Of a DNA stretch of 43,043 nt, positions 2,057 to 31,420 are shown one piece after another. A program made the position numbers and the translations under genes. This stretch comes from Chthonomonadales bacterium (GTDB lineage Bacteria; Armatimonadota; Chthonomonadetes; Chthonomonadales; Chthonomonadaceae), in assembly GCA_038217285.1 (NCBI GenBank), contig JBBQPO010000016.1, forward strand, positions 1-43,043, written 5' to 3'. The first letter of the stretch is position 1. Each line of letters starts with the position of its first letter. The notes below the pieces were generated by a model that saw only the letters and a program-made list of their open reading frames with translations, had not been told where the DNA came from and made no database searches.

Positions 2057-3367
2057 ATGTCGGAAGACAAACGGATAGATCGTCGTTCCCTGATCCAGGG
2101 GGTGTTGGGGGCGGGAGCGGGAGCAACGTTGTTCAACGTCGTTCCCGCCTCGGCGCTGGGACTCGGGGGCCATGTCGCGCCGAGCAACCGCATTGTGATG
2201 GGATGTATCGGCCTGGGGGGGCAGGGTTCCGGCAACATGGGCACCTTCCTGAACATGCCGGATACGCAGATCGTCGCCGTCTGCGACGTCGATAAGAATC
2301 ATCTTGCGGGCGCGAAACAGACCGTGGATCGCCATAACAACAATCAGAGCTGCGCGACCTATAGCGACTTCCGCGAGCTGCTCAGTCGCAAAGACCTGGA
2401 TGCGCTCTCCCTGGCAACTCCGGATCACTGGCACGCCATTCCGGCCATCATGGCGCTGAACGCGGGCCTCGATGTCTACGGCGAGAAGCCCGTCTCGCAC
2501 TGCCTTGCCGAAGGCCGCGCCATGGCGGATGCACAGAAGAAGAACAACCGCATCTGGCAGACGGGAAGCTGGCAACGCTCGGAGAGCCATTTCCGCACCG
2601 CGTGTGAACTGGTGCGCAACGGACGCATCGGCAAGGTCGCTCGGATCGAAGTCGGCTTGCCGACCGGGAGTCCGCACGGCCCAGTGCAGTTCAAGGACGC
2701 TCCGCCGGAGCTCGACTACGAGTTCTGGGTCGGTCCGTCGCGCTGGGCTCCCTACTGCGACGAGCGCACCCACTGGAACTGGCGCTGGCAGCTCGACTAT
2801 GGCGGCGGCCAGATGATGGACTGGATCGGACATCATGCCGACATCGCAAACTGGGGCATGGGTTGGGACAGCACCGGCCCGGTCGAGATCGAAGGCAAAG
2901 GCGAATATCCTACCGAGGGAATCTGGAACGCCGCCACGGTCTACCACTTCATCGCTAAGTACAAAGACGGCGCCGAGATGCACGTCGCCAACGGCGGAAA
3001 CGCGGGCATTCGCAGCGGCACGAAATGGATCGGCGAAGACGGCCGGTGGATATGGGTGGATCGCGGCAACAACAGCCTGGAGGCCAGTGCGAAGTCTATT
3101 CTCGAAGCGAAAGTCGGGCCGAACGAGACGCAACTGTTCCGGAGTCCGGGGCACTGGCGCGAGTTCCTGGACAGCGTGAAGAGCCGCCGTCCGACCATCG
3201 CTCCCTGCGAGACCGGGCATCGCGCGGCGTCCATCGGCCATCTGGGCCAGATCGCCATGCTGACAGGCCGTAAGCTCCACTGGAACCCGGATACCGAGCA
3301 GTTCAAGGACGATCCGACGGCGACCCGCATGCTCTCCACACCGATGCGCGCCCCCTGGCATATCTAA
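2057..3367 (+). CDS. Tat-exported Gfo/Idh/MocA family oxidoreductase
   Basis: AGGAGG RBS before ATG 2057. Twin-arginine signal DRRSLI; motifs IGLGGQG, ATPDHWH, YGEKP and GGGQMMDWIGHH. Confidence 0.93.
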   Translation: MSEDKRIDRRSLIQGVLGAGAGATLFNVVPASALGLGGHVAPSNRIVMGCIGLGGQGSGNMGTFLNMPDTQIVAVCDVDKNHLAGAKQTVDRHNNNQSCATYSDFRELLSRKDLDALSLATPDHWHAIPAIMALNAGLDVYGEKPVSHCLAEGRAMADAQKKNNRIWQTGSWQRSESHFRTACELVRNGRIGKVARIEVGLPTGSPHGPVQFKDAPPELDYEFWVGPSRWAPYCDERTHWNWRWQLDYGGGQMMDWIGHHADIANWGMGWDSTGPVEIEGKGEYPTEGIWNAATVYHFIAKYKDGAEMHVANGGNAGIRSGTKWIGEDGRWIWVDRGNNSLEASAKSILEAKVGPNETQLFRSPGHWREFLDSVKSRRPTIAPCETGHRAASIGHLGQIAMLTGRKLHWNPDTEQFKDDPTATRMLSTPMRAPWHI

Positions 3368-5675: not shown

Positions 5676-7388
5676 TTACGCGTCCTCGTCCTCCAGTTCG
5701 TAAAGCACATCGATCAGTTGTTCGCTGAACAGCGCGGCGTCTTCGTGGCGGCCATCGCGCCGGGCGGCTTCCAGGGCTGTGACGACATTCGCCAGATCGG
5801 CGACATCGTGCCGCCTATGTTCGAGCAGTTTGCGGGCACGCGCCAGCAGCGGATCTCCCACCTCTATTTCCGCCAACTCCAGGTCCGCCAGATAGCGCGC
5901 GGAAGCCTCCCGTGCGCTCGGGCTCAGGCGAGTATGCGCGGCCTGTAAAGTGGTCTGCTTCACCGCCGCGCTGCCCCGGTCTACGGCGGAAACGTTCAGG
6001 ATGCCGCTCACATCCAGATCGAATTGAACCGTGATACGCGGTGGTACACCCGGACTTTCCTGTTTGAGGTCTTCGAACTTAAACTCGCCCAGCAGCGTGT
6101 TCTGCGCGACGAGCGCCGCTTCGCCTTGATAGACCTTGACCTGGATCGCCTTCTGAGATGGATACATGGCCGAAAAGACTTGCGCGCCGCTGGTCGGCAA
6201 CGTGGCGTTGCGATGGATGATGATGCCGTACCGACCCGAAACGACCTCGCCGAAGGCTACTTCGGCAACCTCGATCCCCAGTGAGTGCGGAGTCACGTCG
6301 ACCAGGATAGCATCCAGGGGCTCCCCTGCGATAATGGCGGCCTGAACGCCCGCGCCCAGAGCCACCGCCTCATCCGGATTGATGGCCGACATCGGCTCCA
6401 GTCCGGTATGTTTCGCGACAAGGTTCCATACTAGCGGAATGCGGGTGGAACCGCCAACAAACATCACCTTATCCAGATCGGAAACCGTCAGTCCGGCATC
6501 CGCGAGAGCCTGATCAAAGGAGGTCAGCGTATGCGACAGCCGATCAGAAATCATGTCTTCGAACGTTGCTCGGTCGATCTCCAGGTCGAGATGCAGGGGG
6601 TGATGATCCTTCTCCAGCAAGTACTCTTCGCGTATTCGGGTGAAGGGATAGCTGGAAAGCGCGATCTTGGCCGCCTCCGCAGCGCGCAGTAGGCGTGCGC
6701 GTGCTTTAAGATCCTCGCGCGGATCGACACCGTGCTCGTTCAGGAACCAGTCCGCCACGTAATCCAGCAGCATCTCGTCGAAGTCGTCACCGCCCAGATG
6801 CGTGTCGCCATGGGAGGCGCGCACCTCCAGCACTCCCTGGTTGAGCTCGACGATAGAGACATCAAACGTTCCGCCACCAAGGTCGTACACGGCGATCATC
6901 TGTTGTTCGTCCATGCGATTGAGACCATAAGCCAGCGCCGCAGCCGTCGGCTCGTTGATGATCCGCTCTACCGTCAGCCCCGCGATCTCTCCGGCTTCGC
7001 GGGTGGCCTGGCGGGCAGCGTCCGAAAAGTAGGCAGGGACCGTGATGACCGCGCGTTCCACCGGCTCACCCAGGTTCGCTTCGGCGATACGCTTCATCTC
7101 ACGCAGGATCAGCGCGGATATCTCCGTCGGCGTGTAGTCGCGATCATTCAAGCGCACGGTCTCACCGGTCCCCATCAACCGCTTGATCGAACGGACGGTG
7201 TTCTCGGGGTAGAGCACGTACTGGTTGACGGCAGGCGTGCCGACAACAAGCTGACCGGTCGGAGTGAAACCGACGACAGAAGGGACGATGCGCTCCGCGC
7301 CGTTAGCAAGAATGCTGGGAATACCGTCCCTGACGAAGCCGACGGCAGAAAAGGTCGTACCCAGGTCGATTCCGATAATAGGTGTCAT
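5676..7388 (-). CDS. Hsp70 family chaperone (specialised DnaK paralog)
   Basis: [68 protein letters not shown], and linker [13 protein letters not shown]. 570 aa with a short, divergent lid. Confidence 0.95.
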
Positions 7389-8194
7389 ACAGATCTCTCC
7401 ACTTCCGCGCGAGCAACGATCACTTCGGCGTAACGCAGGACCGTATCGCCCTGGGCATAACCACGTCGCTGTTCGCGTACAATAGCACCGGGATGGACCT
7501 GATCGGTCGCCGGTGCCGTCTCTACTGCAACATGTAGATGAGGGTCGAAGACGCGCCCTGCGGTGGGAACAGGAACGACATCCACGGCTGCCAGCGCTTC
7601 GAGAAGCCGTTCCTGGACGAACTCCAGTCCCTCCAGCCAGGCTGCTATCGCCTGTGAGGAGGACGCCTCGGTCGCTGCAACGGCGCGATGCGCCGGATTC
7701 AGGCGCTGCCAGAAGGACGGGAGCGCGCTCGAATCCGGGAGAGCCGTCGCGCGCTGCAGCCGTCGGCGTCCGGAGGCGAGCGCTTCTTCCAGTCCGTCAA
7801 GCGCCGGAAACAGCCGTCGGACGACGTCCAGCTTTCCCTCTGCACCGGCCTCCCCAAGGCGCTCACGCAGTTGCGCCAGCTCCCGTTCCCGATGGGCTTC
7901 TGCGTCACGCAGTTGTTCGAGCATCGTCTCGGCGCTCTTCTGCTGTGCCTCCGCGAGGGTGTTGGCCTTGAAGAGCTCCCTCCCGGCGCGATTCAACTGC
8001 TTTTCCAGCCGATCCGTGACTTCACTCATAGCCGCAACCGTGTCTATGTGACTCTGAGTCAGGCTCACCATGGCAGCCTCGAATGCGGCAAGGCGCTCGG
8101 TCGTCTCGTCAGGAGGCAATGCTTTTCCTCGACGTACAGGACGCGCATTGTAGTGGCGGCCGGACGGAGAACGACGCAGAATGCCACCGCTCAT
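7385..8194 (-). CDS. GrpE-like nucleotide exchange factor
   Basis: Long N-terminal coiled coil; C-terminal GrpE signature GRVFDPHLHVAV...RRGY...VLRYAEVIVA; ATGA overlap with the Hsp70 gene. Confidence 0.88.
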   Translation of the reverse strand: MSGGILRRSPSGRHYNARPVRRGKALPPDETTERLAAFEAAMVSLTQSHIDTVAAMSEVTDRLEKQLNRAGRELFKANTLAEAQQKSAETMLEQLRDAEAHRERELAQLRERLGEAGAEGKLDVVRRLFPALDGLEEALASGRRRLQRATALPDSSALPSFWQRLNPAHRAVAATEASSSQAIAAWLEGLEFVQERLLEALAAVDVVPVPTAGRVFDPHLHVAVETAPATDQVHPGAIVREQRRGYAQGDTVLRYAEVIVARAEVERSV

Positions 8195-8553
8195 AGCTTG
8201 ACCTCACGCCAGTCTTCACGCCAATCGTTCCGGGCGAGGTCGCTGCACGCTCTCGCCGCCCGAATCACGTCCGCCGGGTCCAGCTTCATTTCGACCGGAG
8301 CAGGCGCTGCCAGGGTGGGCTCCGGCCACACCACGCAACGCTGCATGTCGGTCTCCAGTCTCTTCTCGGGCGTCTTTAACCGTTCATAGGCGGCACGAAT
8401 CTCTTTGAAGGCGACCGGTTCGCGCTCGGGCGGGTGGGCACGCACCTGCGTAAAGTAAGCATTCTTGATCTCCTCCAGGCTTGCGGAGGGAGCGACCCCC
8501 AGAACGGCATACGGATCAGGTGCACGAGGGTCGAGGGGGGCAGGAGGGTTCAT
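8191..8553 (-). CDS. Small J-domain (DnaJ-like) protein with HPPE in place of HPD
   Basis: DPYAVLGV...EEIKNAY...HPPE...FKEIRAAYERL J-domain pattern; 4-nt overlaps with both neighbouring genes. Confidence 0.85.
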   Translation of the reverse strand: MNPPAPLDPRAPDPYAVLGVAPSASLEEIKNAYFTQVRAHPPEREPVAFKEIRAAYERLKTPEKRLETDMQRCVVWPEPTLAAPAPVEMKLDPADVIRAARACSDLARNDWREDWREVKL

Positions 8554-10880
8554 CTAAAAAACTCCTCGTCATCCGGATCCAGCCCACCCGTGCCGAAGAC
8601 GGAGGCCAGCATCCCGAACATGGGGGATCCGATTTTCTGCCGCATTTCGGCGATGGAGTTGAGCAAGTCTTTCCGACCCTGCTTGCGGGCGAGCCGCTCG
8701 GCCTGCGCGAGTGTGGTCTTGCCACCGGCCACATCCCTGGCAATTCCCTGGTAGAATGCCAGGTCGAGGAGGCATTCCGGATCCTCCGGTCTCAGTGCGA
8801 CGAGTTGACGCGCATAATCGACAGCGATCACGGCGTATCCCGGTCCGAGAGCAGAAAGGAGGCTTTCCAGGGCGTCGGCGCGGTCTGTTGCGAGTTCAAG
8901 CCCCTTCTCGATCAGTTCCCGGCCCCACTTTTCCCATACAGGCGAGACGTCTGTTCTGTACGGCTTCACCGCAGGACCGGATGGCGCTCTGCGGGTAAGA
9001 CAGACGACGCCGGCGCTCATATAAAGGTCGAACGTCGCCAATCCGGCCTCTTCGGCACGACGAAGAATCTTGCGTGCCTCTGCTTCGTCGAAAGATCTGC
9101 CCCTGAAGGAGAACAACTGAATGTAGGCAGCGGGGCTGCCGGTCGCAAGGGCGGCGTCGAAATGCGCCTGTGCATTCTTTTTTCTCCCCAGAACAAGCTC
9201 GGCCTGGCCCAGAAACACCAACAGTTGCGGATCGTCTGGGGCATACGTCAGCGCAGCGGTGTAGATATCCCGGGCCTCATAATACATTCCGGAGTTGAAG
9301 GCATCCATTCCGCGTTCGAGCATCATCTGACGGATCGCTTTCCGCGCCGTGTCATGGTTGGAATCGATCTCCAGAATCCGGCTCAACGCCCGCTCCGCAG
9401 CGTAGTTCTCCGCTCGGGCCTGATGTATTTCGGCGAGCAGGAGCAACGCGTCGATCTGCTTCGGATCCTTGGCGAGAATGCGCTGGACTTCGTTCCGGGC
9501 CGCGATGCTCTGTTCGTTGGCAAGCAACGCCGAAACCATCTCCAGTCGCAGATCCATGTTTTCCGGATCGGCTTTAACCGCCTGCTTGTAGTAGGAGATC
9601 GCTTCGTCGGGAAGTTTGGCGCGTCCGTAGTTGTCGAGGATACGGCGGCGCATCCAAGCGCGCTGTTCCTCCAGAGTAGGCCCCTCGGTCGTGGGTAAAG
9701 GGTTCTTGGGCGTCCGCCCGCTCCGTCTGGGCAGGGTGTTCAACAGCGCCACCCAGGCTTGTGCAGCCGACTCCCACGCTTGGAGCGCCTCGTAGGCGAT
9801 GGCAAGATTATGAAGTATTGGCGGTAGCGGCCCCAGGCCGGGATGCGTCTCCAGGAGACCGCGCATGGTCAGCCAGCGGCCAACCGCAGTGTTCCATTCT
9901 CCCGCCTCCCGTGCCGCCACAGCCAGTCGATTGGCGGCGATCAAGGCTGCCTTCAGCAGCCAGGTGTCGCCGGGTGCGAGAGCAGCGCTGCTCTGCGCCT
10001 GGTCGAGTGCCTCCTCCCATCGCCCTTCCTGCTGGAGCGCCAGGATGCTGTGCGCGGAGATCTGGGAGAGGTAGGCATTCAGGTGGGGAGGGCTCGCCCC
10101 AGCTGCCGGGGAAGAGACACGCAACATCTCCCGCCATACAGACAGGGCGAGCGGCGGCTTCCCGCCCAGAGCCGCCGCTACACCGAAGTAGAACGCACGC
10201 GTCGGTTCTGCGCCTACCGGAAGACGCTGCCCTTTCGGAGGGCTCAGCGCGGCATACGCTCCCAACGCGTCTCCGCGTGCGAGCAGCGTCAGACCCTGCC
10301 AGAGAGAGGTTACCGGGTCGATGGTGCCCGGAGGACTGGAGGCATCGGCGCGGGCCGGGAGCGCCTGCGCAGCAGGCGGCTCCCCTCGAAGCAGACCGGC
10401 GATTGGCGCGAGGGAGGTCCGAGCCTCCGGAGTCAGCCACGGCAGCGTGTCGAGAGAGAGACCGGAATCGACTTCCAGTTCCGCCAGACCTCGCACAAGT
10501 CCGATACCCCGGCGCGCCAAGCCCAGGTCGGCTGCCCGCGCGTACGCCTGTCGGGCCTCCTCCAGGTGGTCGTTCCGATGAAGCATCAGGCCGAGTTGAT
10601 ACCAGTAGCGCGCTTCGTCAGGAAGCAGGTCAACGGCGTGGCGCAGATCGGCCAGCGCCTCGGAGGCCGTCAGACGCGTTGCCAACGCGCGGCGAAAGTG
10701 GGCCTCGGCGACCGCTGCACACACGGCGGGTTCGTCCCCTGCGTCGAGTTCGTTCCAAAACCGGATCGCCTCGCTATAGTTGCCTAGATGAAACGCCTTG
10801 AGACCGAGGCCCCCCGCGCCGGAAGGGCGAGGCGTCGGTTTGGAAGCTTTATGATGGGGCTTTAGATTTCGTCGACTCAT
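8550..10880 (-). CDS. Multi-TPR protein
   Basis: Many TPR-like helical repeats (ARYWYQLGLML, AISYYKQAVKADPEN); first gene of the Hsp70 operon. Confidence 0.85.
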   Translation of the reverse strand: MSRRNLKPHHKASKPTPRPSGAGGLGLKAFHLGNYSEAIRFWNELDAGDEPAVCAAVAEAHFRRALATRLTASEALADLRHAVDLLPDEARYWYQLGLMLHRNDHLEEARQAYARAADLGLARRGIGLVRGLAELEVDSGLSLDTLPWLTPEARTSLAPIAGLLRGEPPAAQALPARADASSPPGTIDPVTSLWQGLTLLARGDALGAYAALSPPKGQRLPVGAEPTRAFYFGVAAALGGKPPLALSVWREMLRVSSPAAGASPPHLNAYLSQISAHSILALQQEGRWEEALDQAQSSAALAPGDTWLLKAALIAANRLAVAAREAGEWNTAVGRWLTMRGLLETHPGLGPLPPILHNLAIAYEALQAWESAAQAWVALLNTLPRRSGRTPKNPLPTTEGPTLEEQRAWMRRRILDNYGRAKLPDEAISYYKQAVKADPENMDLRLEMVSALLANEQSIAARNEVQRILAKDPKQIDALLLLAEIHQARAENYAAERALSRILEIDSNHDTARKAIRQMMLERGMDAFNSGMYYEARDIYTAALTYAPDDPQLLVFLGQAELVLGRKKNAQAHFDAALATGSPAAYIQLFSFRGRSFDEAEARKILRRAEEAGLATFDLYMSAGVVCLTRRAPSGPAVKPYRTDVSPVWEKWGRELIEKGLELATDRADALESLLSALGPGYAVIAVDYARQLVALRPEDPECLLDLAFYQGIARDVAGGKTTLAQAERLARKQGRKDLLNSIAEMRQKIGSPMFGMLASVFGTGGLDPDDEEFFR

Positions 10881-16746: not shown

Positions 16747-18741
16747 CTATTTATGCACGGCTAGTTGAATAGCAGGAGCGAGCGTATTGGAGTTGTCGAG
16801 ATGTCCGATTAGGATGACGTTGGCAATGTCCGGCGCGGCATCGGGCGCGGCGGTCAGCGTGATTTTGCCGTCGGTCTGCCCGGCAGGAATAGTCGCTGCA
16901 GTCGCTGTAACCTTCGCGGGCAGCCCGCGCAGCTCCAGCTTGATCTCATTTTTGGCGTTCGGCTGCCGATCCACATGAACTGGAATATCGAGACTATTGC
17001 CCGGAATCAAAGTCAGGAAAGCGGGCGTCATCCCAAAATTGAAGGTATCAGTTCGGTCGGTGATGCCAAGCAGCAACAGATCCCAGAGATGATGCGGGCG
17101 GGTGTAAGAGAACTCAACGGCCAGCCCCAGATCGATCGAACGATGCTCGTATTTTTCCCATGCAGGGGCCGCATGTAAGGTAGAATGGCCGCCGATAGTG
17201 GCGACACCGACGATCTGTACGCCAGACGCCGCAATCACCGCCCCAGGCGCGGCCGTCAGGGTGACCTCAAGCGTCGTCTTGCCCACCCCGATCGTTCCGC
17301 CCCGCGCCGTCACGCCCTCCGGCAGACCTTCTATCTTTACCGCGACCGCGTCCTGAAAGCCGCCGGATCGTTCCATCGTGATGGGCAGCGACACGGTACC
17401 GCCGACCGGCACCGTCAGTCGATCCGCAGTGATAGAAATCCGGAAATCCGGCTGCACTCGCGAGGCTTTCAGGCGGTAGTAGCAGTCAGGCCCCGTGATC
17501 TCCTCCACGTTGCTGACTTCGACGGTGTATTCCCCTTCGTTCGGAGCCGTAAATACCAGGCGGGCCTCTTTGCCGAGTTCGGGAGCATCGTCGTTGGCAG
17601 CGATCTCTTTGCCAACGGTATTCAGAATCCGTATCTGCCCGTCGATCCGGGAGCCGATGCGCCGCCCCAGCAGATCGAACAGGTACGCGGACTGCGCTGC
17701 GGCGTGAAATGTAAACCGACGGTGCGGCGCTTGGCCAAATACTCCATCGACCGCAGCCGGAAGCGCCGGTAACGGCTGCGGTAATGCACTCTGTCCGACA
17801 TCGGTCACCGCCTCGTTCTCGACGATCAGTGGCACGACTATCGGGTTCGCGCCATCCGCCTTCACTTCCGCCCAAAACATACCGGGAGCGGCATCGGCCG
17901 GGATCGAAACGAGGGCCTGCTTCGTGGTCAAATTGGTGCCGTCCAGTGCGAGCAGTACCTGATGACCGGGAGGCGCTCCGCGCGGAGTGTATCCTGCCAG
18001 AAAGGCCATACGACCGACCCGGAGACGGTACGTATAGTTAGGTCCGCCATTGTACTCCGAATCCCGCACGGTCAGGAAATAGCGCCCGGCCTTCGCGAAG
18101 CGATAGACAAAGCGCGGGTCGGTCTCCCACATCGACTGCACCAGTTTCAGGCTCACTCCCGCCTCATCGCGCAGTTCCATCACGGGGTCGAAACGGGAAC
18201 GAATGCGGTCTGCAAAACAGTCGAAAGCCCAGGTGTCGCCTGCCGAGGCCGTGAGGACGAAGCGATCCCGACCGGCACGAGCGGCGATCCGCCCGTTCAA
18301 CGCCACCGGTTTCGCGCCGTCCAGTGGCAGCGGCGGCAGGCTCTCCGTCATCGGGGTTTCTATCACTTGATTGGGAATCACGTCTACCCAGAACCGGGAT
18401 CCGTTGGAAACCCCTTTGGAGGTCGCCAGACGCAACTCATGCGGTCCCAGCTTCGCGTTCGCCTCGACAGACAGCTCCGCCGTCAACTGACTGCCGTCCG
18501 GCGTCACCTGAACTGACTTCACGGCGACGCCGCCCCCACTCAGATAGAGACGCGCCCCTACCAGGTTCTTCCCGTCAACTCGAAGAGTCGTCGCCTGACC
18601 TCGCGGCCCTCCCGCCGGCAACAGCCCCCCAATCTCCGGAGATTGGGCCATCGCCGAACGTGCAGTCGCGCTGCTCAGCCCGCCTACCAATCCCACTCCA
18701 AACCACAACTGTAAAAGCCTCGTCGATGGCGCGGTCCTCAC
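16747..18741 (-). CDS. Secreted PPC (pre-peptidase C-terminal)/Ig-like domain protein
   Basis: GTG start overlaps the DUF1501 stop. PAGGPRG, GRYFLTVRD...YRLRVG and GKEIAANDD motifs typical of PPC proteins in DUF1501 clusters. Confidence 0.78.
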   Translation of the reverse strand: MRTAPSTRLLQLWFGVGLVGGLSSATARSAMAQSPEIGGLLPAGGPRGQATTLRVDGKNLVGARLYLSGGGVAVKSVQVTPDGSQLTAELSVEANAKLGPHELRLATSKGVSNGSRFWVDVIPNQVIETPMTESLPPLPLDGAKPVALNGRIAARAGRDRFVLTASAGDTWAFDCFADRIRSRFDPVMELRDEAGVSLKLVQSMWETDPRFVYRFAKAGRYFLTVRDSEYNGGPNYTYRLRVGRMAFLAGYTPRGAPPGHQVLLALDGTNLTTKQALVSIPADAAPGMFWAEVKADGANPIVVPLIVENEAVTDVGQSALPQPLPALPAAVDGVFGQAPHRRFTFHAAAQSAYLFDLLGRRIGSRIDGQIRILNTVGKEIAANDDAPELGKEARLVFTAPNEGEYTVEVSNVEEITGPDCYYRLKASRVQPDFRISITADRLTVPVGGTVSLPITMERSGGFQDAVAVKIEGLPEGVTARGGTIGVGKTTLEVTLTAAPGAVIAASGVQIVGVATIGGHSTLHAAPAWEKYEHRSIDLGLAVEFSYTRPHHLWDLLLLGITDRTDTFNFGMTPAFLTLIPGNSLDIPVHVDRQPNAKNEIKLELRGLPAKVTATAATIPAGQTDGKITLTAAPDAAPDIANVILIGHLDNSNTLAPAIQLAVHK

Positions 18742-20081
18742 GAGAACAGACCTGGAATACCGGGGGAGTCCCGGACAATGCGGGCTTCGCGGAGGCGCGC
18801 GGAGACGTCCATGTTGAGCAGTTTGGCGACGGACATATAGGTGTCTTCCGGAGTGATCGGCAGTTCCGCCGGGTAGCGGGCCTGCGCGTCACTGGAACCG
18901 ATGACACGTCCGCCGGGGATACCGGCGCCCGTGATAAGATACGAATAGACGAAGGGCCAGTGGTCACGCCCGGCGGCTCCATTGACGGAGGTGCGGCCGA
19001 ACTCGCCGGTCACGAGCACCAGGGTCTTCTTGTTCATACCGCGCTGATAGACGTCGTCGATGAGAGCGGAGACGGTGCGGTCCAGTTCCGGTAGTTGGCG
19101 TTTGCAGCGATTGAAGTTGTCGCCGTGGTTGTCAAAGCCCATCTTATCGACATCGTCGTTGATCGGATGCGCCCGCCAGTTGACCTGAACGAAGCGCACA
19201 CCCGATTCGATCAGCCGCCGCGCCATCAGACAGCCCTGTCCGAACTGCGTCATGCCGTAGCGCTCGCGGACCGCCGTGGGCTCCTTGGTCAGGTCGAACG
19301 CCTTCTTGGCCTCGGGAGAAGTGACCAGGGTGAACGCCTTTTCGTAGGAGGCGTCGTGAATCCGGGTGTCGCCGCTCTCGATCTGCCGCTGGAACGCGTC
19401 TACCTTCTTGTAGAGTTCACGGCGCAGATTGAGGCGATCGCCGGTCATGCCGGGCGGCGGCGTGAGGGCCGCCAGTTTGTCCACCGGCTGCATCGCATCC
19501 AGTACGCGAAAGGGCGAGGAGGCGTTGCCGAGGAAGCCGCCGTCCTGACCAAGGGGACCGTTTCCGGCCGTATCGTACATGCGCGGTCCGATGTGCAGGG
19601 CCGACGGCAGCGCATTGCGCTGCGGCATGAACTTATTGATGACGGCACCCATATTCGGAGCTTCCCGGCCGGGCGCGACCTTGTTGCCGGTCAGGGTGTA
19701 GTGGGCCGCCTGCGCGTGAACCGTCTGATCGTGTGTGGCGGAGCGAATGATCGTGTACTTGTCGGCCATCCGCGCCAGCATAGGCAGGTGCTCGCAGATG
19801 TGGGTGCCGGGAATGTTGGTCGGTATCGGCTTGAAGATGCCCCGGATCGCCTCGGGAGCATCAGGCTTCATATCAAAGGTGTCCTGGTGCGGCGCTCCTC
19901 CCCACAGAAACACGATAATGATGGACATCCCGTCGTCCACGCTGGCCTGCGCCAGACTGCTCTGGGCGGCAAACATCCCCGGCAGGGTCAGCCCTAAAAA
20001 GCCCGCAGAGCCGATCTGCAGGAACTCGCGGCGGGACCGCCCGTCGCACGTCTCTACGGTCTCATGTCCGAATTCGATCAT
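18738..20081 (-). CDS. DUF1501 family protein (Tat-exported)
   Basis: SRREFLQIG Tat motif, FLWGGAPHQDTFDMKP, ERYG...FGQGCLMARRLIESGVRFV, GEFGRT and GRDHW. Alternative start at 20096. Confidence 0.92.
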   Translation of the reverse strand: MIEFGHETVETCDGRSRREFLQIGSAGFLGLTLPGMFAAQSSLAQASVDDGMSIIIVFLWGGAPHQDTFDMKPDAPEAIRGIFKPIPTNIPGTHICEHLPMLARMADKYTIIRSATHDQTVHAQAAHYTLTGNKVAPGREAPNMGAVINKFMPQRNALPSALHIGPRMYDTAGNGPLGQDGGFLGNASSPFRVLDAMQPVDKLAALTPPPGMTGDRLNLRRELYKKVDAFQRQIESGDTRIHDASYEKAFTLVTSPEAKKAFDLTKEPTAVRERYGMTQFGQGCLMARRLIESGVRFVQVNWRAHPINDDVDKMGFDNHGDNFNRCKRQLPELDRTVSALIDDVYQRGMNKKTLVLVTGEFGRTSVNGAAGRDHWPFVYSYLITGAGIPGGRVIGSSDAQARYPAELPITPEDTYMSVAKLLNMDVSARLREARIVRDSPGIPGLFS

Positions 20082-20111
20082 TGCTTCTTCCCTCATCCTT
20101 CACAAGGCGCG

Positions 20112-22391
20112 TCAGTGGTTGAAAAGGAACTCTTTGCTGTTGACCAGAACCCACAGCATATCCTCGAAGGCGCGGCGGCGGGCGGCGTTCAGTGTACTCG
20201 CCGGGTTCGGTGTCGGCGTGTTGGGCACGGCTTTGGGCGTGATAGCGACAGGGGCCGCTGCAACAGCCCGGTGCAACGCATTCAGGTTCGACGCTTGTTC
20301 GTCGGGACGCGGTGCGCGGCTACAGGTGGCCCAGTAGAGCGCGTCCAGAATCTCCGTATCGGACTTGCCAGCTGTCACCAGACGGTCTACAATGCCGTTG
20401 TCGGCGGTCACCTTGCGGTTGAGAACGTCTCCATTGATGAACAGCAGTGCCTGCGCCATATTCGGCTCCTGGCTGCGCTCGCATTCGCAGGTAATGACGC
20501 GCGCCGGTCGCCCGAGGATGTCCATGAAGTCGGACTTGACATGCGTGTCCGGCAACTGCGACGCCCTATAGCCCGCCGGCATACCGGGGAACTCCTCCGG
20601 CTTGCCGGTCACCTGGCTCAGAGCATCCAGCAGTTGTTCGGCGGTCATACGGCGCACCAGGAAGTGGCTCGAATACTTGTCGTCTTTCGCATTCTGGGGC
20701 GTTGCAGCCGAGGAGAGCTGATAGGCGCGTGAGGTGACGATCCGGCGCATCAGATACCGCAGATCGTACTTATGCTGCACGAAGTCGGCGGCAAGGGCGT
20801 CGAACAACTCCGGGTTGGAAGGCGGATTGGTTTCGCGCATATCGTCAACAGGCTCAACGAGGCCACGCCCCATAAAGTGAGCCCAGACCCTATTGACGAT
20901 AGAGTGGGTGAAGTACCAGTTGTCCGGTCGCGTCAGCCACTCCGCGAAGAAGACGCGACGGTCGCGCGGCGAGTTGAGAGCGAGCGTCGGGCCCCCCAGC
21001 GGCTTCGGCGGCACCGGTCGGCCCAGGCGCGGCTGAATCAGGTCGCCGACCGAGACATTGTAGACGGTCATCTCGTCGTTGACATAGATCCCAAGGTTGG
21101 CCTTGTACTTGACCCGCGCGAAGATCTGCGCCATACCGTAGTACTCGTTCTGGGTCCATTTCTCCAGAGGATGGTTGTGGCACTTGGCGCACTGCATCCG
21201 AATGCCGAGAAAACCCTGACTGACGTTCTCGGCCAACTCTTCGGGCTTAAGCGCCGTCCGGAAATAGTTGGCTGGGCCATCGAGGAAGGTGTTACCGTGC
21301 GCGGTCAGCACTTCGCGGGCCATGGTATCCCAGCCCTTGTTGTCGCGGACGGCATCGTGGATATAGCTGTAGTAGGCCCACATCCCCTTATCCTTGAGGG
21401 TTCCCCGATTGACCCGCAGCAGATCGCTCCACTTGTACGCCCAGAAATCCGTAAATTCCGGTCGCGCCATCAAGGCGTCGACCAGTTTGGCGCGTTTCTG
21501 CGCATCTCTGTCGGCGGCGAAGGCGCGCGCTTCGGCAGGATTCGGCAGAGCGCCGGTAAGGTCCAGCGTGACACGTCGAATGTACTCCAGGTCGCCCGCC
21601 GTGCGGCTTGGGGCAAGGTGAAGGGCAGCGAGTTTCGCATAGACCCGGTCATCGATATAGTTGGCACGCGGAAGCTTCGCATAGAGGGCAGGATCGATCT
21701 TGTTGGGGAACGGCACCTGGACCCGCGCAACGGCGACTTTGTCCTGGTACCCCATCATGATCGCGGTCTGCCCTACCCCGTCGATCGTCACCAGACCGTT
21801 CGGAACGACCGTCGCCACGTTTTCGTCGTTGGAGGCGAAACGGGTCCAGTGCGTCACGTCGCGAAAGGAACCATCCGAGAAGACGGCCTGAACATGCAGT
21901 TGCAGTCGATCTTTCGGTGTGAGGGACCGCGACGACGGATTCACGCGGAGCGCCGTGACGTGCGGATCGCGAACGTCCGGCCCCGGCGCTCCCTGGGCGA
22001 TCCAGCGTAAGAGAAGTTCGAACTCCGGGGTGCCGCGCCGCAGCGCCTTACCGCCAAGATGAGGCATCTCCATCAGGGGCTTGCGCAGTACGAGGCTCTG
22101 CTCGGGCTTCAAAACGTTGATACGTCGTCCCTGAAACTGCCTTGTCAGCGCCACAAAATCAAGCTCAGGCGCGAACCCCCGGAGCGAGAGTTTGAAGCCA
22201 TTTTTGCCTGCCGCTGCGCCATGACACGTGCCCATATTGCAGCCAGCCCGAGTCAACACCGGTATAACGTCGTTGACGAAACTGACCGGCGTACCGATCA
22301 TTGGTTTCACCGCTTCCGCAGCGGACCCGCGCAACGCCAAAAGCACCAACGCCAGCAGCGCGACGGCGATTCTCCCCAGGGGTTTGCTCAA
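20112..22391 (-). CDS. DUF1549/DUF1553 (PSD1-type) protein with Ig-like (BIG2) domain
   Basis: GGGAGGAG RBS before TTG 22391. SFVNDVIPVLTRAGCNMGTCHG, IRRVTLDLTG, MQCAKCHNHP, VNRVWAHFMGRGLVEPVDD, CECER and C-terminal NSKEFLFNH. Confidence 0.92.
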   Translation of the reverse strand: MSKPLGRIAVALLALVLLALRGSAAEAVKPMIGTPVSFVNDVIPVLTRAGCNMGTCHGAAAGKNGFKLSLRGFAPELDFVALTRQFQGRRINVLKPEQSLVLRKPLMEMPHLGGKALRRGTPEFELLLRWIAQGAPGPDVRDPHVTALRVNPSSRSLTPKDRLQLHVQAVFSDGSFRDVTHWTRFASNDENVATVVPNGLVTIDGVGQTAIMMGYQDKVAVARVQVPFPNKIDPALYAKLPRANYIDDRVYAKLAALHLAPSRTAGDLEYIRRVTLDLTGALPNPAEARAFAADRDAQKRAKLVDALMARPEFTDFWAYKWSDLLRVNRGTLKDKGMWAYYSYIHDAVRDNKGWDTMAREVLTAHGNTFLDGPANYFRTALKPEELAENVSQGFLGIRMQCAKCHNHPLEKWTQNEYYGMAQIFARVKYKANLGIYVNDEMTVYNVSVGDLIQPRLGRPVPPKPLGGPTLALNSPRDRRVFFAEWLTRPDNWYFTHSIVNRVWAHFMGRGLVEPVDDMRETNPPSNPELFDALAADFVQHKYDLRYLMRRIVTSRAYQLSSAATPQNAKDDKYSSHFLVRRMTAEQLLDALSQVTGKPEEFPGMPAGYRASQLPDTHVKSDFMDILGRPARVITCECERSQEPNMAQALLFINGDVLNRKVTADNGIVDRLVTAGKSDTEILDALYWATCSRAPRPDEQASNLNALHRAVAAAPVAITPKAVPNTPTPNPASTLNAARRRAFEDMLWVLVNSKEFLFNH

Positions 22392-22509
22392 CAGGCAGTC
22401 TCCTCCCAAACGTTCTAACTCGGTTAGACAGAGATTGCAATCGTTTGTGGCAACGATCCCATACCATTTGCCAGGAATCGTTGCATTGTTTACGTCGGTT
22501 CCTGCACCC

Positions 22510-23256
22510 TTAGAGCGGTGCGACCCAGACATTGCGAAACTGAACCACATCGTGATCCCCTTGCAGGATGATTGGCCCGGTCTTCACCGCCTCTTTGTAC
22601 TCGCCGTACTGGATGCCGGTCATGCCGTTAAAGTCATTGTTGTTCTGGACGAGAATTCCGTTCTGAAACACGGTGACACGGGGCTGCTCCGTCACCTTCC
22701 CATCCGCTCCAAAGCGGGGGGCGCGGAAGACGATGTCGTAGGTCTGCCATTCGCCGGCCTTCTTTGAAGCGATCACGAGGGGCGGTTTCTGGCTGTAGAG
22801 CGCGCCGCACTCATGCGCCTCTGGCTTCTTGCCATACGAGTCGAGTATCTGAATTTCGTAGCGGCCCTGCAGTCCGACACCGCTGTTACCATGCCCGATC
22901 ACTTTGCCGCCCGCATCTACCGCGATGCGAAAGTCGGTGTGTACGAGGCAGTCGCCGAACTCCTGTTTGCTGGTGATGTCCGTTTTGTTCGGCGTGGCCA
23001 CGCCGTCTGCATCGACCGTCCATCCACCGGGGTCTTTAGAGTAACGTTTGTAAAAGCCGGACGTAATCTGATCAGGTTTGCCCGTAAAGAGCAGAACGGC
23101 CCCCTTCGGCGGCTGCGTGGACAGACTCACTTTGGCGGGTATCAATACCGCTTCCTCCGACTGCTGACGCGCGTATAGACGCGAGGCGCCAAAGCCGAGA
23201 AGGGCGGCACACGACAGTGCGATCACGGTACGTTGCGCAACATATTGACGATTCAT
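22510..23256 (-). CDS. DUF1080 (3-keto-disaccharide hydrolase family) secreted protein
   Basis: GNSGVGLQGRYEIQILDS, GEWQTYDIVFRAPRF and GPIILQGDHDVVQFRNVWV; AAGGAG RBS. Confidence 0.9.
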   Translation of the reverse strand: MNRQYVAQRTVIALSCAALLGFGASRLYARQQSEEAVLIPAKVSLSTQPPKGAVLLFTGKPDQITSGFYKRYSKDPGGWTVDADGVATPNKTDITSKQEFGDCLVHTDFRIAVDAGGKVIGHGNSGVGLQGRYEIQILDSYGKKPEAHECGALYSQKPPLVIASKKAGEWQTYDIVFRAPRFGADGKVTEQPRVTVFQNGILVQNNNDFNGMTGIQYGEYKEAVKTGPIILQGDHDVVQFRNVWVAPL

Positions 23257-27406: not shown

Positions 27407-28233
27407 TGGAAGGCTCCGACCAGTCCCCGGCAGCAGGCGCGCCGGAAGCGGGAGCAGACGCTCCCGCTTCCGGTGGCCTCCGCTGGCGGCGCATCCTGCT
27501 CAAGCTCTCCGGCGAAGCCTTCGCCGCCGACTACGGGCCGACCGCCATCGCTGAGCGCGAAGCGACAAAAGAGCCTCGTGTCGGCCTGAACTACGCGACT
27601 ATCCGCTCCATCGCGGCCGAAGTCGTCGCCGCGCACCATGCGGGCGCCGAGATCGCCATCGTGATCGGCGCAGGCAATATCATCCGGGGCGAGCGTGCCG
27701 CCGAAGCAGGCATGGAACGTGCCGGAGCCGACTATATGGGCATGCTCGGCACGGTCATCAACAGCATGGCTCTGCAGGACGCGCTCGAAAAGCAGGGCGT
27801 CCCCACCCGTGTGATGAGCGCCATCGCGATGGCCGAAGTCGCGGAGCCGTTCATTCGCCGCCGTGCCATCCGTCACCTCGAAAAGGGCCGTGTCGTCGTA
27901 CTCGCCGGAGGCACCGGCAATCCGTTCTTCACGACGGATACGGCGGCCGCTCTCCGCGCCAATGAGATCCGCGCCGGGGCCGTCCTCAAGGCCACCAACG
28001 TCGATGGCGTCTACGACAAAGACCCCCGCAAGTTCTCCGACGCCAAGCGCCACACCCAGGTCTCTTACGACGACTGTATAAAGAACAACCTGCGCGTCAT
28101 GGATCAGACCGCCTTTACCTTCTGCCGCGAATACGACATCCCAATCGTCGTCTTCGACATCGCGCAGCAGGGCAACATCCGCCGTGTCGTCCAGGGCGAC
28201 AACATCGGAACGCTCGTCAGTCGCAGCGCATAG
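27406..28233 (+). CDS. pyrH: UMP kinase
   Basis: [30 protein letters not shown] and [22 protein letters not shown] coupling with tsf. Confidence 0.97.
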
Positions 28234-28837: not shown

Positions 28838-29605
28838 ATGTACGAACGGCCCCTTACGCCGGAAAAGGCCGGTCTTGATCCCCAGCGTCTCCCGACCCAT
28901 GTCGCCATCATCATGGATGGCAACGGTCGATGGGCCACCGAGCAAGGGCAGGATCGGCTCGTGGGACACTATCAGGGCTACCGGATGCTCAAGGAGATCG
29001 TCTATGCCTGCGACGATCTGGGCATCCCGTATCTGACGGTCTATGCCTTCTCCTCCGAGAACTGGCGACGGTCTCAGGACGAGGTCGGTGGCCTGATGAC
29101 CCTGATGCTGTATGCCATGCAGTCCGAGATCGAGGAGCTGATCGAGAACAGGATCCGGGTGCGTGTCTCCGGACGAATGAGCGATCTGCCGACCGATCTC
29201 CGCACCGAATTTATGGCCGCGGCAGAGCGCACCGTCGATTTTAGCGGCCTGACCTTCAATATCGCGATCAACTATGGCGGGCGAAGCGAAGTCGTAGATG
29301 CGGTTCAGGCCCTGGCGAGGGCAGTGCAGCGCGGCGAAATCACGCCCGAATTGATCGACGAAGCCGCGATCGCCGCCCATCTCTACACTCCGGACATTCC
29401 CGACCCCGACCTACTGATTCGCACGGCTGGGGAGATGCGCCTCTCCAACTTTCTGCTGTGGCAGACCGCCTACAGCGAAATCTACGTCACCCCGACCTGC
29501 TGGCCTGCCTTCGACAGCGCCGAGCTCGTCGCCGCTCTCGCCAACTACGCGAAACGCGTCCGCAAATTCGGCGGACTCGGCGCAAATTCGGAGAACCCTG
29601 CCTGA
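28838..29605 (+). CDS. uppS: Undecaprenyl diphosphate synthase (cis-isoprenyl transferase)
   Basis: HVAIIMDGNGRWA, YAFSSENWRR, NYGGR and DPDLLIRTAGEMRLSNFLLWQ. Confidence 0.97.
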   Translation: MYERPLTPEKAGLDPQRLPTHVAIIMDGNGRWATEQGQDRLVGHYQGYRMLKEIVYACDDLGIPYLTVYAFSSENWRRSQDEVGGLMTLMLYAMQSEIEELIENRIRVRVSGRMSDLPTDLRTEFMAAAERTVDFSGLTFNIAINYGGRSEVVDAVQALARAVQRGEITPELIDEAAIAAHLYTPDIPDPDLLIRTAGEMRLSNFLLWQTAYSEIYVTPTCWPAFDSAELVAALANYAKRVRKFGGLGANSENPA

Positions 29606-29641
29606 CAACTTGTATGTTCGCCCACACCACAGAAGGAGAAT

Positions 29642-30256
29642 ATGATGCGTAAACTGAGTTGGCTGCCCGTTGTGGCGGCTCTGTCTGTTTTATCCCCCCT
29701 CGCTCTGGTCGGAACACCGGCAACGGTCGCTGCGCAGGAGACGCCTGCACAGACGCCCCCCATTGTCAGCAAACCAGCAGAGGCGAAGACGATCCTGGAC
29801 GCCGCCTATAAACAGGCGAAAAAGGAGCGTAAGCCGATTCTGGTGATGTTCCATGCGACCTGGTGAGGGTGGTGCAAGCGGCTGGATGCCGTTTTAGACA
29901 AACCCGATTTCAAGGCGGCCTTCGCGGCCAACTACGTAATGGTAAACCTCGATGTGATGGAGAACGGCCCGAAGGTCGCGACCGATGAGAACCCCGGTGG
30001 CGTCGCCATCATGAAGACGCTCGGCGGCGAAAAGTCCGGCCTGCCTTTCTATGCCATCCTCGACGCCAAAGGCAAGAAACTCGCCGACTCGAACGTCATG
30101 CCCAAAAACCAGAACATCGGCTACCCCGGCTCCTCGGAGGAGATCGAGGCGTTCGGGAAGATCCTCGAAAAGACGGCTCCCAAATGGAAAGAGGCGGATC
30201 GTCTGAAACTCATCGACTATCTTAAACAGAACGCGCCGCCGAGCACGGGACATTAA
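29642..30256 (+). CDS. Exported thioredoxin-like selenoprotein (UxxC; in-frame TGA at 29864-29866 read as Sec)
   Basis: The ORFs 29642-29866 and 29939-30256 are in frame, with no other stop between them. Read-through gives ..VMFHATW-U-GWCKRLD.. and the thioredoxin cis-Pro loop GLPFYAILD. Signal peptide, AAGGAG RBS and a SECIS-like hairpin are present. Confidence 0.85.
29867..29905 (+). promoter_or_regulatory. Putative bacterial SECIS element
   Basis: Stem AAGCGGC (29876-29882)/GCCGTTT (29888-29894) with apical loop UGGAU beginning 16 nt after the UGA (G at loop position 2). Lower stem GGGT/ACCC. Confidence 0.65.
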
Positions 30257-30262
30257 CCCACG

Positions 30263-31420
30263 ATGAAACGACTGGTTATTCTCGGTTCGACGGGCTCCAT
30301 CGGCACCCAGGCGCTGGATGTCGCTCGCCGGCTGCCAGGCCGATTTCAGATCGTCGGTCTGGCTGCCAACGGAAATGCGGAACTTCTTGCCGCGCAGGCG
30401 AATGAGTTCCAGGTTCCTTACGTATCGATAGGTAATGAGGCGCGGCGACCGGACCTGCTGGAGCGGCTCGCGGCCCTCGGCTGGAGTCCGAACGTCCTCG
30501 TCGGCGTCGAAGGCATGTGCTCCCTCGCCTCGCTGCCGGAAGCGGATCTGATCGTCGTCGCGGTAGCCGGAGCCATTGGAATCGCGCCCACCCACGCGGC
30601 GCTCGAATCCGGCAAAGACATCGGGCTCGCCAGCAAAGAGGTTCTGGTCGCCGCCGGAGAGCCGACGATGGCTCTGGCGAAAGCCCGTGGCGCGACGATT
30701 TTGCCCATCGATAGCGAGCACTCGGCGATCTTCCAATGTCTGCAGGGCGCGCCGGAACGCAGCATCGAACGGATCTTATTGACGGCTTCCGGCGGTCCCT
30801 TCCGCACCGTACCCCGCGAAGCGCTGTCGCATGTCACCCCGGAACAGGCGCTGAAGCATCCGATCTGGAGCATGGGGGGCCTGGTGACGATCAACTCGGC
30901 GACGCTAATGAACAAAGCCCTGGAAGTCATCGAGGCGAAGTGGCTGTTCGACGTGCCGATCAAGAATGTCGAAGTGGTAGTTCATCCGCAGTCTATCGTG
31001 CATAGCATGGTCCGCTTTACAGACGGTTCGACGCTCGCGCAGTTGGGTCTTCCCGATATGCGGCTGCCGATCCAGTATGCGCTGGTCTACCCGGAGCGCG
31101 TCGATACGGGCCTTCCGCGCATGGAGCTTAGCGCCTACGCCAACCTCACCTTCGAGGCCCCCGACGAGGCGAAATTCCCGGCGCTCGCGTTGGCCCGCCA
31201 TGCTGTGCGCACTGGCGGCACACTGCCTGCGGTGATGAATGCCGCTAATGAAGCCGCCGTCGGGCTGTTTCTGGATCACAAGATAGCGTATTTGGAGATT
31301 ATGCGACGGGTCGAACGAGCGATGGAGAGCCATACCCCCGTGCTCCCGACCCTGCCGAATATCCTGGAAGCCGATGTGTGGGCGCGACGATCCGTTATGG
31401 AAGACGGAACGACGCACTGA
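30263..31420 (+). CDS. dxr: 1-deoxy-D-xylulose-5-phosphate reductoisomerase
   Basis: ILGSTGSIG, PIDSEHSAIFQ, LTASGGPFR, HP.W.MG, NSATLMNKALEVIEA, HPQSIVHSMV and NAANE. Confidence 0.97.
   Translation: MKRLVILGSTGSIGTQALDVARRLPGRFQIVGLAANGNAELLAAQANEFQVPYVSIGNEARRPDLLERLAALGWSPNVLVGVEGMCSLASLPEADLIVVAVAGAIGIAPTHAALESGKDIGLASKEVLVAAGEPTMALAKARGATILPIDSEHSAIFQCLQGAPERSIERILLTASGGPFRTVPREALSHVTPEQALKHPIWSMGGLVTINSATLMNKALEVIEAKWLFDVPIKNVEVVVHPQSIVHSMVRFTDGSTLAQLGLPDMRLPIQYALVYPERVDTGLPRMELSAYANLTFEAPDEAKFPALALARHAVRTGGTLPAVMNAANEAAVGLFLDHKIAYLEIMRRVERAMESHTPVLPTLPNILEADVWARRSVMEDGTTH

Follow-up and report, generated by a model that had tools for sequence, protein, structure and literature searches.

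An in-frame TGA at the catalytic Cys codon of a thioredoxin-fold gene from a Chthonomonadaceae bacterium: a probable UxxC selenoprotein with a predicted signal peptide

Thioredoxin-fold proteins with a UxxC motif are the commonest type of bacterial selenoprotein in published inventory tables (PMC13188914, PMC9312934), which also list a 'Thiol:disulfide interchange protein' UxxC family whose domain is PF13098. For the hairpin that accompanies the recoded codon, the bSECIS model given in the first of these sources (PMC13188914) has a loop of 3-9 nt, an upper stem of 4-16 bp, a G at loop position 1 or 2, a distance of 16-37 nt from the UGA to the loop, and an MFE of -7.5 kcal/mol or lower. Recoding of UGA of this sort is already known, and it is routinely missed by annotation pipelines. 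We describe here a locus in a stretch of 43,043 nucleotides (hereafter the window) at which UGA 29864-29866 is very probably read as selenocysteine (Sec), and whose product, from a Chthonomonadaceae bacterium, would be an exported thiol-disulfide oxidoreductase with a thioredoxin fold.

The gene occupies 29642..30256 on the forward strand. When TGA is translated as U, a single frame spans this entire interval, with TGA 29864-29866 as its sole interruption, and it closes with a TAA after 204 codons, or 203 if the second ATG is the start. Translation table 11 divides the same frame into two ORFs, 29642..29866 (74 aa) and 29939..30256 (105 aa), and the databases hold the window's pieces of 73-74 and 105 aa separately; an earlier note on this DNA had read the two short ORFs as one frame split only by the TGA, and had expected pipelines to break up the gene, and both points are borne out. 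U75 is the only non-standard step in the readthrough product of 204 residues, where its context is KPILVMFHATW-U-GWCKRLDAVL. This in-frame TGA, the proposed selenocysteine codon for residue 75 (29864-29866, forward strand), lies in the column of the nucleophilic first Cys of CxxC; the resolving Cys78 of U-G-W-C is encoded by TGC 29873-29875 on the same strand, as seen in the sequence, its translation and the alignment. The gene product is predicted to be the precursor of an exported thioredoxin-fold protein carrying U75-G-W-C78. A Shine-Dalgarno sequence, AGGAG (29634-29638, forward strand), precedes ATG 29642 by 3 nt and ATG 29645 by 6 nt. Because of this spacing, and because full-length homologs in the alignment begin MRKLSWLP with one Met, we favour the second ATG (29645), which probably is the true start and would give a protein of 203 aa; the length of 204 aa proposed earlier holds from the first ATG, but the second fits better.

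The homologs assign the TGA to a catalytic position. Cys occupies its column in 119 of the 119 full-length homologs listed (89 with WCGWC, 29 with WCSWC and one with WCPWC), as was to be expected if the TGA sits on the first Cys of the thioredoxin motif, which is where the earlier note had placed it; Cys is also found there in all 18 full-length sequences of the multiple alignment. The full-length Cys homologs are 73-81% identical to the window protein, and the best relatives, for protein and DNA alike, are Chthonomonadaceae (Armatimonadota) MAGs. We also fetched 21 homologous loci from reference genomes, the nearest of which is 79% identical; one (L021) matches the N-terminal region only and lacks the motif. 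Whether relatives carry Cys or TGA at this codon, a check that the earlier note had called for, can be answered from the 20 motif-bearing loci: the codon is TGT or TGC in 19 and TGA in one (L010). Four loci (L001, L002, L003 and L005) are syntenic orthologs in the order pyrH-frr-uppS-(this gene)-dxr, and all have TGT or TGC, one base from TGA. A nonsense mutation or base-call error would for this reason be mechanically easy, and that is one point in favour of a broken gene, in which the TGA would have come from TGC/TGT by recent nonsense mutation or through a mistake in base calling or assembly, and the hairpin behind it would be a coincidence. We give this reading a slim chance, on grounds that emerge below from the hairpin, from recurrence of the TGA and from the codons downstream.

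The hairpin that we propose as a bacterial SECIS element lies at 29876-29894 on the forward strand, and comprises a stem of 7 bp and an apical loop of 5 nt: the 5' arm is AAGCGGC (29876-29882), the loop UGGAU (29883-29887) and the 3' arm GCCGUUU (29888-29894), with one G-U pair and an energy of -9.0 to -9.6 kcal/mol. A hairpin with this loop, beginning 16 nt downstream of the UGA, had been described before; it is present with its UGGAU loop, but it is the apical loop that starts 16 nt after the UGA, and the stem starts at 9 nt. We compared the hairpin with the bSECIS model by an ungapped hairpin scan of our own and not by bSECISearch. It falls within the published ranges (loop 5 nt, stem 7 bp, G as the second loop base, 16 nt from the UGA, -9.0 kcal/mol), in agreement with the earlier note, which had set it beside bacterial SECIS elements. 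By itself the hairpin is weak evidence. A qualifying ungapped hairpin follows 76 of the 1103 TGA triplets in the window (6.9%), 43 of these at -9.0 kcal/mol or lower, and this base rate favours the broken-gene reading. The 62-nt stretch folds no better than its shuffles (z = -0.29); a scan of the whole window at Rfam gathering thresholds returned no match, and a permissive Rfam scan of 29780-30000 returned two at chance level (E = 4.4 and 8.7), neither to a SECIS family.

It is the comparison with relatives that gives the hairpin weight. The bSECIS test passes in both of the TGA genes (-9.0 kcal/mol for the window and -11.4 for L010, in the same register and with the same loop) and in none of the 19 Cys genes, in which the best value is -4.9 (Fisher p = 1/210); a hairpin that tracks the TGA in this way argues against coincidence. 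The window and L010 have 22 identical nt in common (TGGTGCAAGCGGCTGGATGCCG), a stretch that covers 5' arm and loop and takes in four 3'-arm bases, and dS between the two genes outside that shared stretch is about 1. The only stem difference replaces G-U with G-C, with Val changed to Ala. The syntenic Cys orthologs encode K-R-L-E-A-V-M with non-pairing codons, and the window departs from the Cys orthologs exactly at the residues (D/E and L/M) whose codons form the 3' arm of the stem, which also counts against a broken gene. A separate observation concerns L015, a Cys-bearing locus from Bacteroidota: it has a 7-bp hairpin (AGGCAUC/UUAAU/GAUGCUU, within 3124-3171, -8.2 kcal/mol) in the same register after TGC, which fails the loop-G criterion because the loop opens with two U. 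This hairpin could be due to chance, or it could be the relic of a former SECIS.

L010, from another Chthonomonadaceae MAG, is a paralog that is 59% identical and occupies a different gene neighbourhood. Its TGA (1413-1415) stands at the equivalent codon, so that its motif reads W-U-P-W-C; TGA and the same hairpin thus recur together in a second gene, and a broken gene does not readily explain a near-identical hairpin, with its one G-U/G-C change in the stem, behind a TGA at the same codon. Short proteins in public data extend this pattern. Our search returned 34 matches among 42 candidates, of which two are the window's own pieces and 32 are others. Three of these 32 (P0137, P0151 and P0155) are N-terminal pieces, and all three terminate precisely at ...FHATW; they are protein records only, but contig ends would not coincide three times on one residue. 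That three independent fragments share their end residue again weighs against the broken-gene reading. The remaining 29, together with P0071 (115 aa, 90% identical), are C-terminal pieces that begin past the motif, P0130 being the C-terminal piece of L010. Many of these C-terminal fragments could be contig-end truncations; some sit on contigs of 10-127 kb. A search restricted to residues 33-74 yielded no new N-terminal fragments, finding only the window's piece, P0137 and P0155. In a FastTree tree of 150 family members, in which only 30 of 147 inner branches are well supported, the fragments are scattered, entailing 20-21 changes of which at least nine are forced; we do not take these changes as a count of Cys/Sec switches, because the fragments may be contig-end truncations.

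Two groupings among the fragments deserve mention in their own right. P0151 (N-terminal, 73 aa, ending at FHATW) and P0071 (C-terminal, 115 aa) have seven member sequences each and are both closest to the Cys form P0007; the two appear to be complementary halves of a further TGA-bearing ortholog. In the tree, the C-terminal fragments P0130, P0132 (on a 127-kb contig), P0135 and P0141 group with the TGA gene of L010 (1245-1817), a placement that suggests that paralogs with TGA make up an entire subclade in Chthonomonadaceae.

Two things go beyond chance: that the TGA falls on the catalytic Cys column, and that TGA and hairpin recur together in relatives. It is very unlikely that the TGA arose by accident. 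Selection on the codons beyond it points the same way. Over the 129 codons past the TGA, which contain no additional stops or frameshifts, dN/dS is 0.086 against both L001 and L002 (dS 0.86-0.91); by this measure purifying selection on the downstream part is strong. Relaxed selection there, named in the earlier note as grounds for rejecting the selenoprotein, is not seen, and the intact downstream codons further oppose a broken gene; in favour of the latter, a mutation is not datable by pairwise dN/dS. A reassigned code in which TGA is a sense codon was considered and ruled out: of the 17 genes in the window that have family support, TGA closes 8, among them the neighbouring uppS, frr, dxr and rseP, so that this organism uses it as a normal stop codon. 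The other TGA-interrupted frames in the window are all true gene ends or non-coding GC-rich frames, and our scan of the window brought up no further candidate selenoprotein bearing a redox motif. With the TGA on the Cys column, a TGA and hairpin in L010, the ends at FHATW and purifying selection downstream, the earlier interpretation of this gene as that of a selenoprotein is sustained.

One may also imagine that the two ORFs yield two products, a secreted peptide of 74 residues and a separately initiated protein of 105 residues from ATG 29939. Table 11 does call both pieces as ORFs, and databases store such pieces separately. Against this, neither half is a complete thioredoxin fold in the AlphaFold2 model, the 24 codons from the TGA to ATG 29939 are conserved in homologs and include the resolving Cys, no AGGAG-like site lies ahead of 29939, and single-chain, full-length homologs are the rule (119 listed). 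We consider two products scarcely credible.

Read through as one chain with Sec at position 75, the protein belongs to the thioredoxin superfold by several measures. It matches Pfam Thioredoxin_7 (PF13899) at 60 bits against a cut-off of 27 (E = 2.5e-16, residues 52-142), and also passes PF00085 Thioredoxin (35.5 against 23.5), PF03190 Thioredox_DsbH (33.3 against 27) and, with a UxxC motif, PF13098 Thioredoxin_2 (29.4 bits against 27). An AlphaFold2 model based on a 20-sequence alignment has a mean pLDDT of 82.9, with residues 45-200 mostly above 85; AlphaFold2 and Foldseek together delimit a thioredoxin-fold domain of approximately residues 45-200 (29774..30241, forward strand) that has two extra C-terminal helices. 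The thioredoxin identity proposed earlier is therefore one on which Pfam and the model agree. In that model, strand 66-71 is followed by U75 and by a helix at 76-85; U75 therefore stands at the N-terminal end of helix 1, where a CxxC motif classically has its nucleophilic Cys. Foldseek against the PDB produced 42 matches at E <= 0.001, and those listed are nearly all of thioredoxin fold; at the top are 3fk8 and DsbH 2ju5, then 3f9u (a domain of an exported type related to cytochrome c biogenesis), DsbD-gamma and AGR2/ERp18. A sequence search of the PDB is consistent with this result.

Residues 1-31 (29642..29734, forward strand) look like a Sec-type signal peptide, with MMRK, a hydrophobic core and V-A-A before Q32, and it is from these features that we infer export; A31 is almost invariant in the alignment, and the pLDDT of the model is below 60 over residues 1-40. 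None of the curated NCBIfam selenoprotein models is reached by the window protein. We rejected assignment as a DsbH equivalog (NF043050, 36.1 bits against a cut-off of 190), the protein being DsbH-like and no equivalog, and as the Trx7/PDZ (seleno)protein NF041199 (26.4 against 300 bits), given a motif of UxxC and no PDZ match; TsoB scores 30.8 against 805.

Sec insertion is the usual outcome of a UGA plus a SECIS, which favours Sec over the other residue that such a UGA might specify here. According to PMC13582414, which cites Vargas-Rodriguez et al. 2018, tRNA-ReC-like tRNAs decode UGA as Cys given a downstream SECIS, and such tRNAs occur in five of five Armatimonadota genomes with UXXU-type hydrogenases. 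Since tRNA-ReC-like tRNAs are known in the phylum, the residue inserted at this UGA could be Cys, delivered through the hairpin and SelB by a SelC-like tRNA-ReC, in which case the mature protein would be an ordinary CxxC protein; DNA cannot distinguish the two, and the TGA on the Cys column, the conserved hairpin and purifying selection fit both equally well. On the other hand, canonical SelC is also present in those five UXXU-type genomes, which belong to other Armatimonadota classes, and Sec-type group 4 hydrogenases are reported from Armatimonadota MAGs in the same source (PMC13582414). No tRNA that might insert Cys is found in the window: ARAGORN detected no tRNA genes there, and none in the 9 homologous loci, out of 21, to which it was applied. 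We give Cys insertion a small chance, and consider it improbable to the same degree if the reading is widened so that Sec or Cys is inserted according to selenium supply. If such conditional recoding were true, an exported oxidoreductase would be a natural client for it, and the switching between TGA and TGY among orthologs would reflect flexibility.

The preferred reading, insertion of Sec, implies a Sec machinery in the genome. Neither selA, selB, selD nor a tRNA-Sec lies within the 43-kb window, as surveyed with NCBIfam on 30 window ORFs and with ARAGORN, and the absence of such machinery from the window is a further point for a broken gene. The literature that we searched reports no selenoproteins from Chthonomonas or Chthonomonadaceae and contains nothing on this protein family. 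The string 'Chthonomonad' is absent from the Armatimonadota rows of one supplementary table of PMC13582414, and the passages searched of the deep-Sep paper (PMC12013277) mention neither thioredoxin nor Armatimonadota.

By NCBIfam annotation of the window ORFs, the gene lies in the order rpsB-tsf-pyrH-frr-uppS-(this gene)-dxr-rseP; the order is the same in L001 and L002, and, up to the end of the contig, in L003 and L005. The thioredoxin-like gene is thus placed between uppS and dxr (window 28838-31420), a position at which many bacteria carry cdsA; no cdsA-like ORF was found among the 30 window ORFs scanned. Some other features of the window may be recorded here. With GTG 28184 as its start, the listed frr ORF shares 50 nt with pyrH (28184-28233); its profile match begins only at residue 36, so the true frr start is probably further downstream. 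On the reverse strand, four large ORFs (664, 452, 812 and 248 aa) at 16747-23256 have no NCBIfam match at E <= 1e-5. Also on the reverse strand, 5676-10880 encodes a DnaK-like protein of 570 aa that aligns with model positions 1-497 of 625 and scores under the curated cut-offs, adjoined on the same strand by a weak GrpE-like ORF and a TPR protein of 776 aa; this interval may be a non-canonical Hsp70 module.

We propose the following course of events, with steps taken from the established bacterial pathway. SelB-GTP carrying Sec-tRNA(Sec) would bind the apical loop of the hairpin at 29876-29894 when the ribosome is at the UGA, and Sec would go in at position 75 in place of termination. The precursor would then pass the inner membrane via the Sec translocon by virtue of its N-terminal signal peptide, which would probably be cleaved after Ala31. 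Once the protein is in the periplasm, its U75-G-W-C78 motif, at the N-terminal end of helix 1, would alternate between the selenol/thiol and selenenylsulfide states; with Sec making the nucleophilic attack, it could act on substrate disulfides as DsbH or DsbD-gamma do. Sec rather than Cys as the residue, export, and the redox direction are each points that we infer.

At present the public databases hold this gene and many of its relatives as fragments only (P0137, P0151, P0155, P0071 and P0130 are examples), so that the active-site residue, and with it the entire enzyme, is absent from annotations. If confirmed, the finding would extend selenocysteine use to Chthonomonadaceae, a group without a selenoprotein report in the literature searched, and would add a Thioredoxin_7/DsbH-like UxxC protein with a predicted signal peptide that lies outside the curated NCBIfam selenoprotein models. 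Because close syntenic orthologs have Cys, the locus offers a clean natural Sec/Cys pair, with which one can ask what advantage Sec brings in a compartment that is oxidising and lies outside the cytoplasm.

How, then, does this protein compare with those already described? It resembles the bacterial UxxC thioredoxin-fold selenoproteins in that Sec would replace the N-terminal nucleophilic Cys of CxxC, in having a SECIS-like hairpin just 3' of the UGA, and in the abundance of its Cys homologs. It differs from them in that its best family is Thioredoxin_7, in its greater length (approximately 170 residues when mature, two additional helices being present at the C-terminus), in its predicted signal peptide and in its host, a member of Chthonomonadaceae. 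Its likeness to the 'Thiol:disulfide interchange protein' family is by domain and motif only (PF13098 and UxxC). Xylella 'disulphide isomerase' 3fk8 is its top structural match (Foldseek E = 5.3e-8, TM 0.68 on the target). Chlamydia DsbH (2ju5), a periplasmic disulfide reductase, is an exported, single-domain thioredoxin-fold protein, as the window protein appears to be, and ranks second by structure (E = 2.7e-6), with a sequence match of 6.2e-7 over residues 31-154; DsbH has Cys instead of Sec, however, and identity is just 24%. With DsbD-gamma, whose Foldseek entries are at about 1e-4, it has the thioredoxin fold of a periplasmic reductase in common; compared with DsbD-gamma and 3fk8, to which identity is 20-28%, it is without a membrane domain, and no DsbD or CcdA gene is adjacent in the window. 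NF041199 (Trx7/PDZ), a listed selenoprotein family, shares its Thioredoxin_7 domain, but has a CxxU motif, a PDZ domain and approximately 390 residues. No curated NCBIfam selenoprotein model covers the window protein, yet UxxC thioredoxin-fold proteins are common and PF13098 is passed, and we therefore regard it as a well-supported UxxC thioredoxin-fold selenoprotein, of a kind already known.
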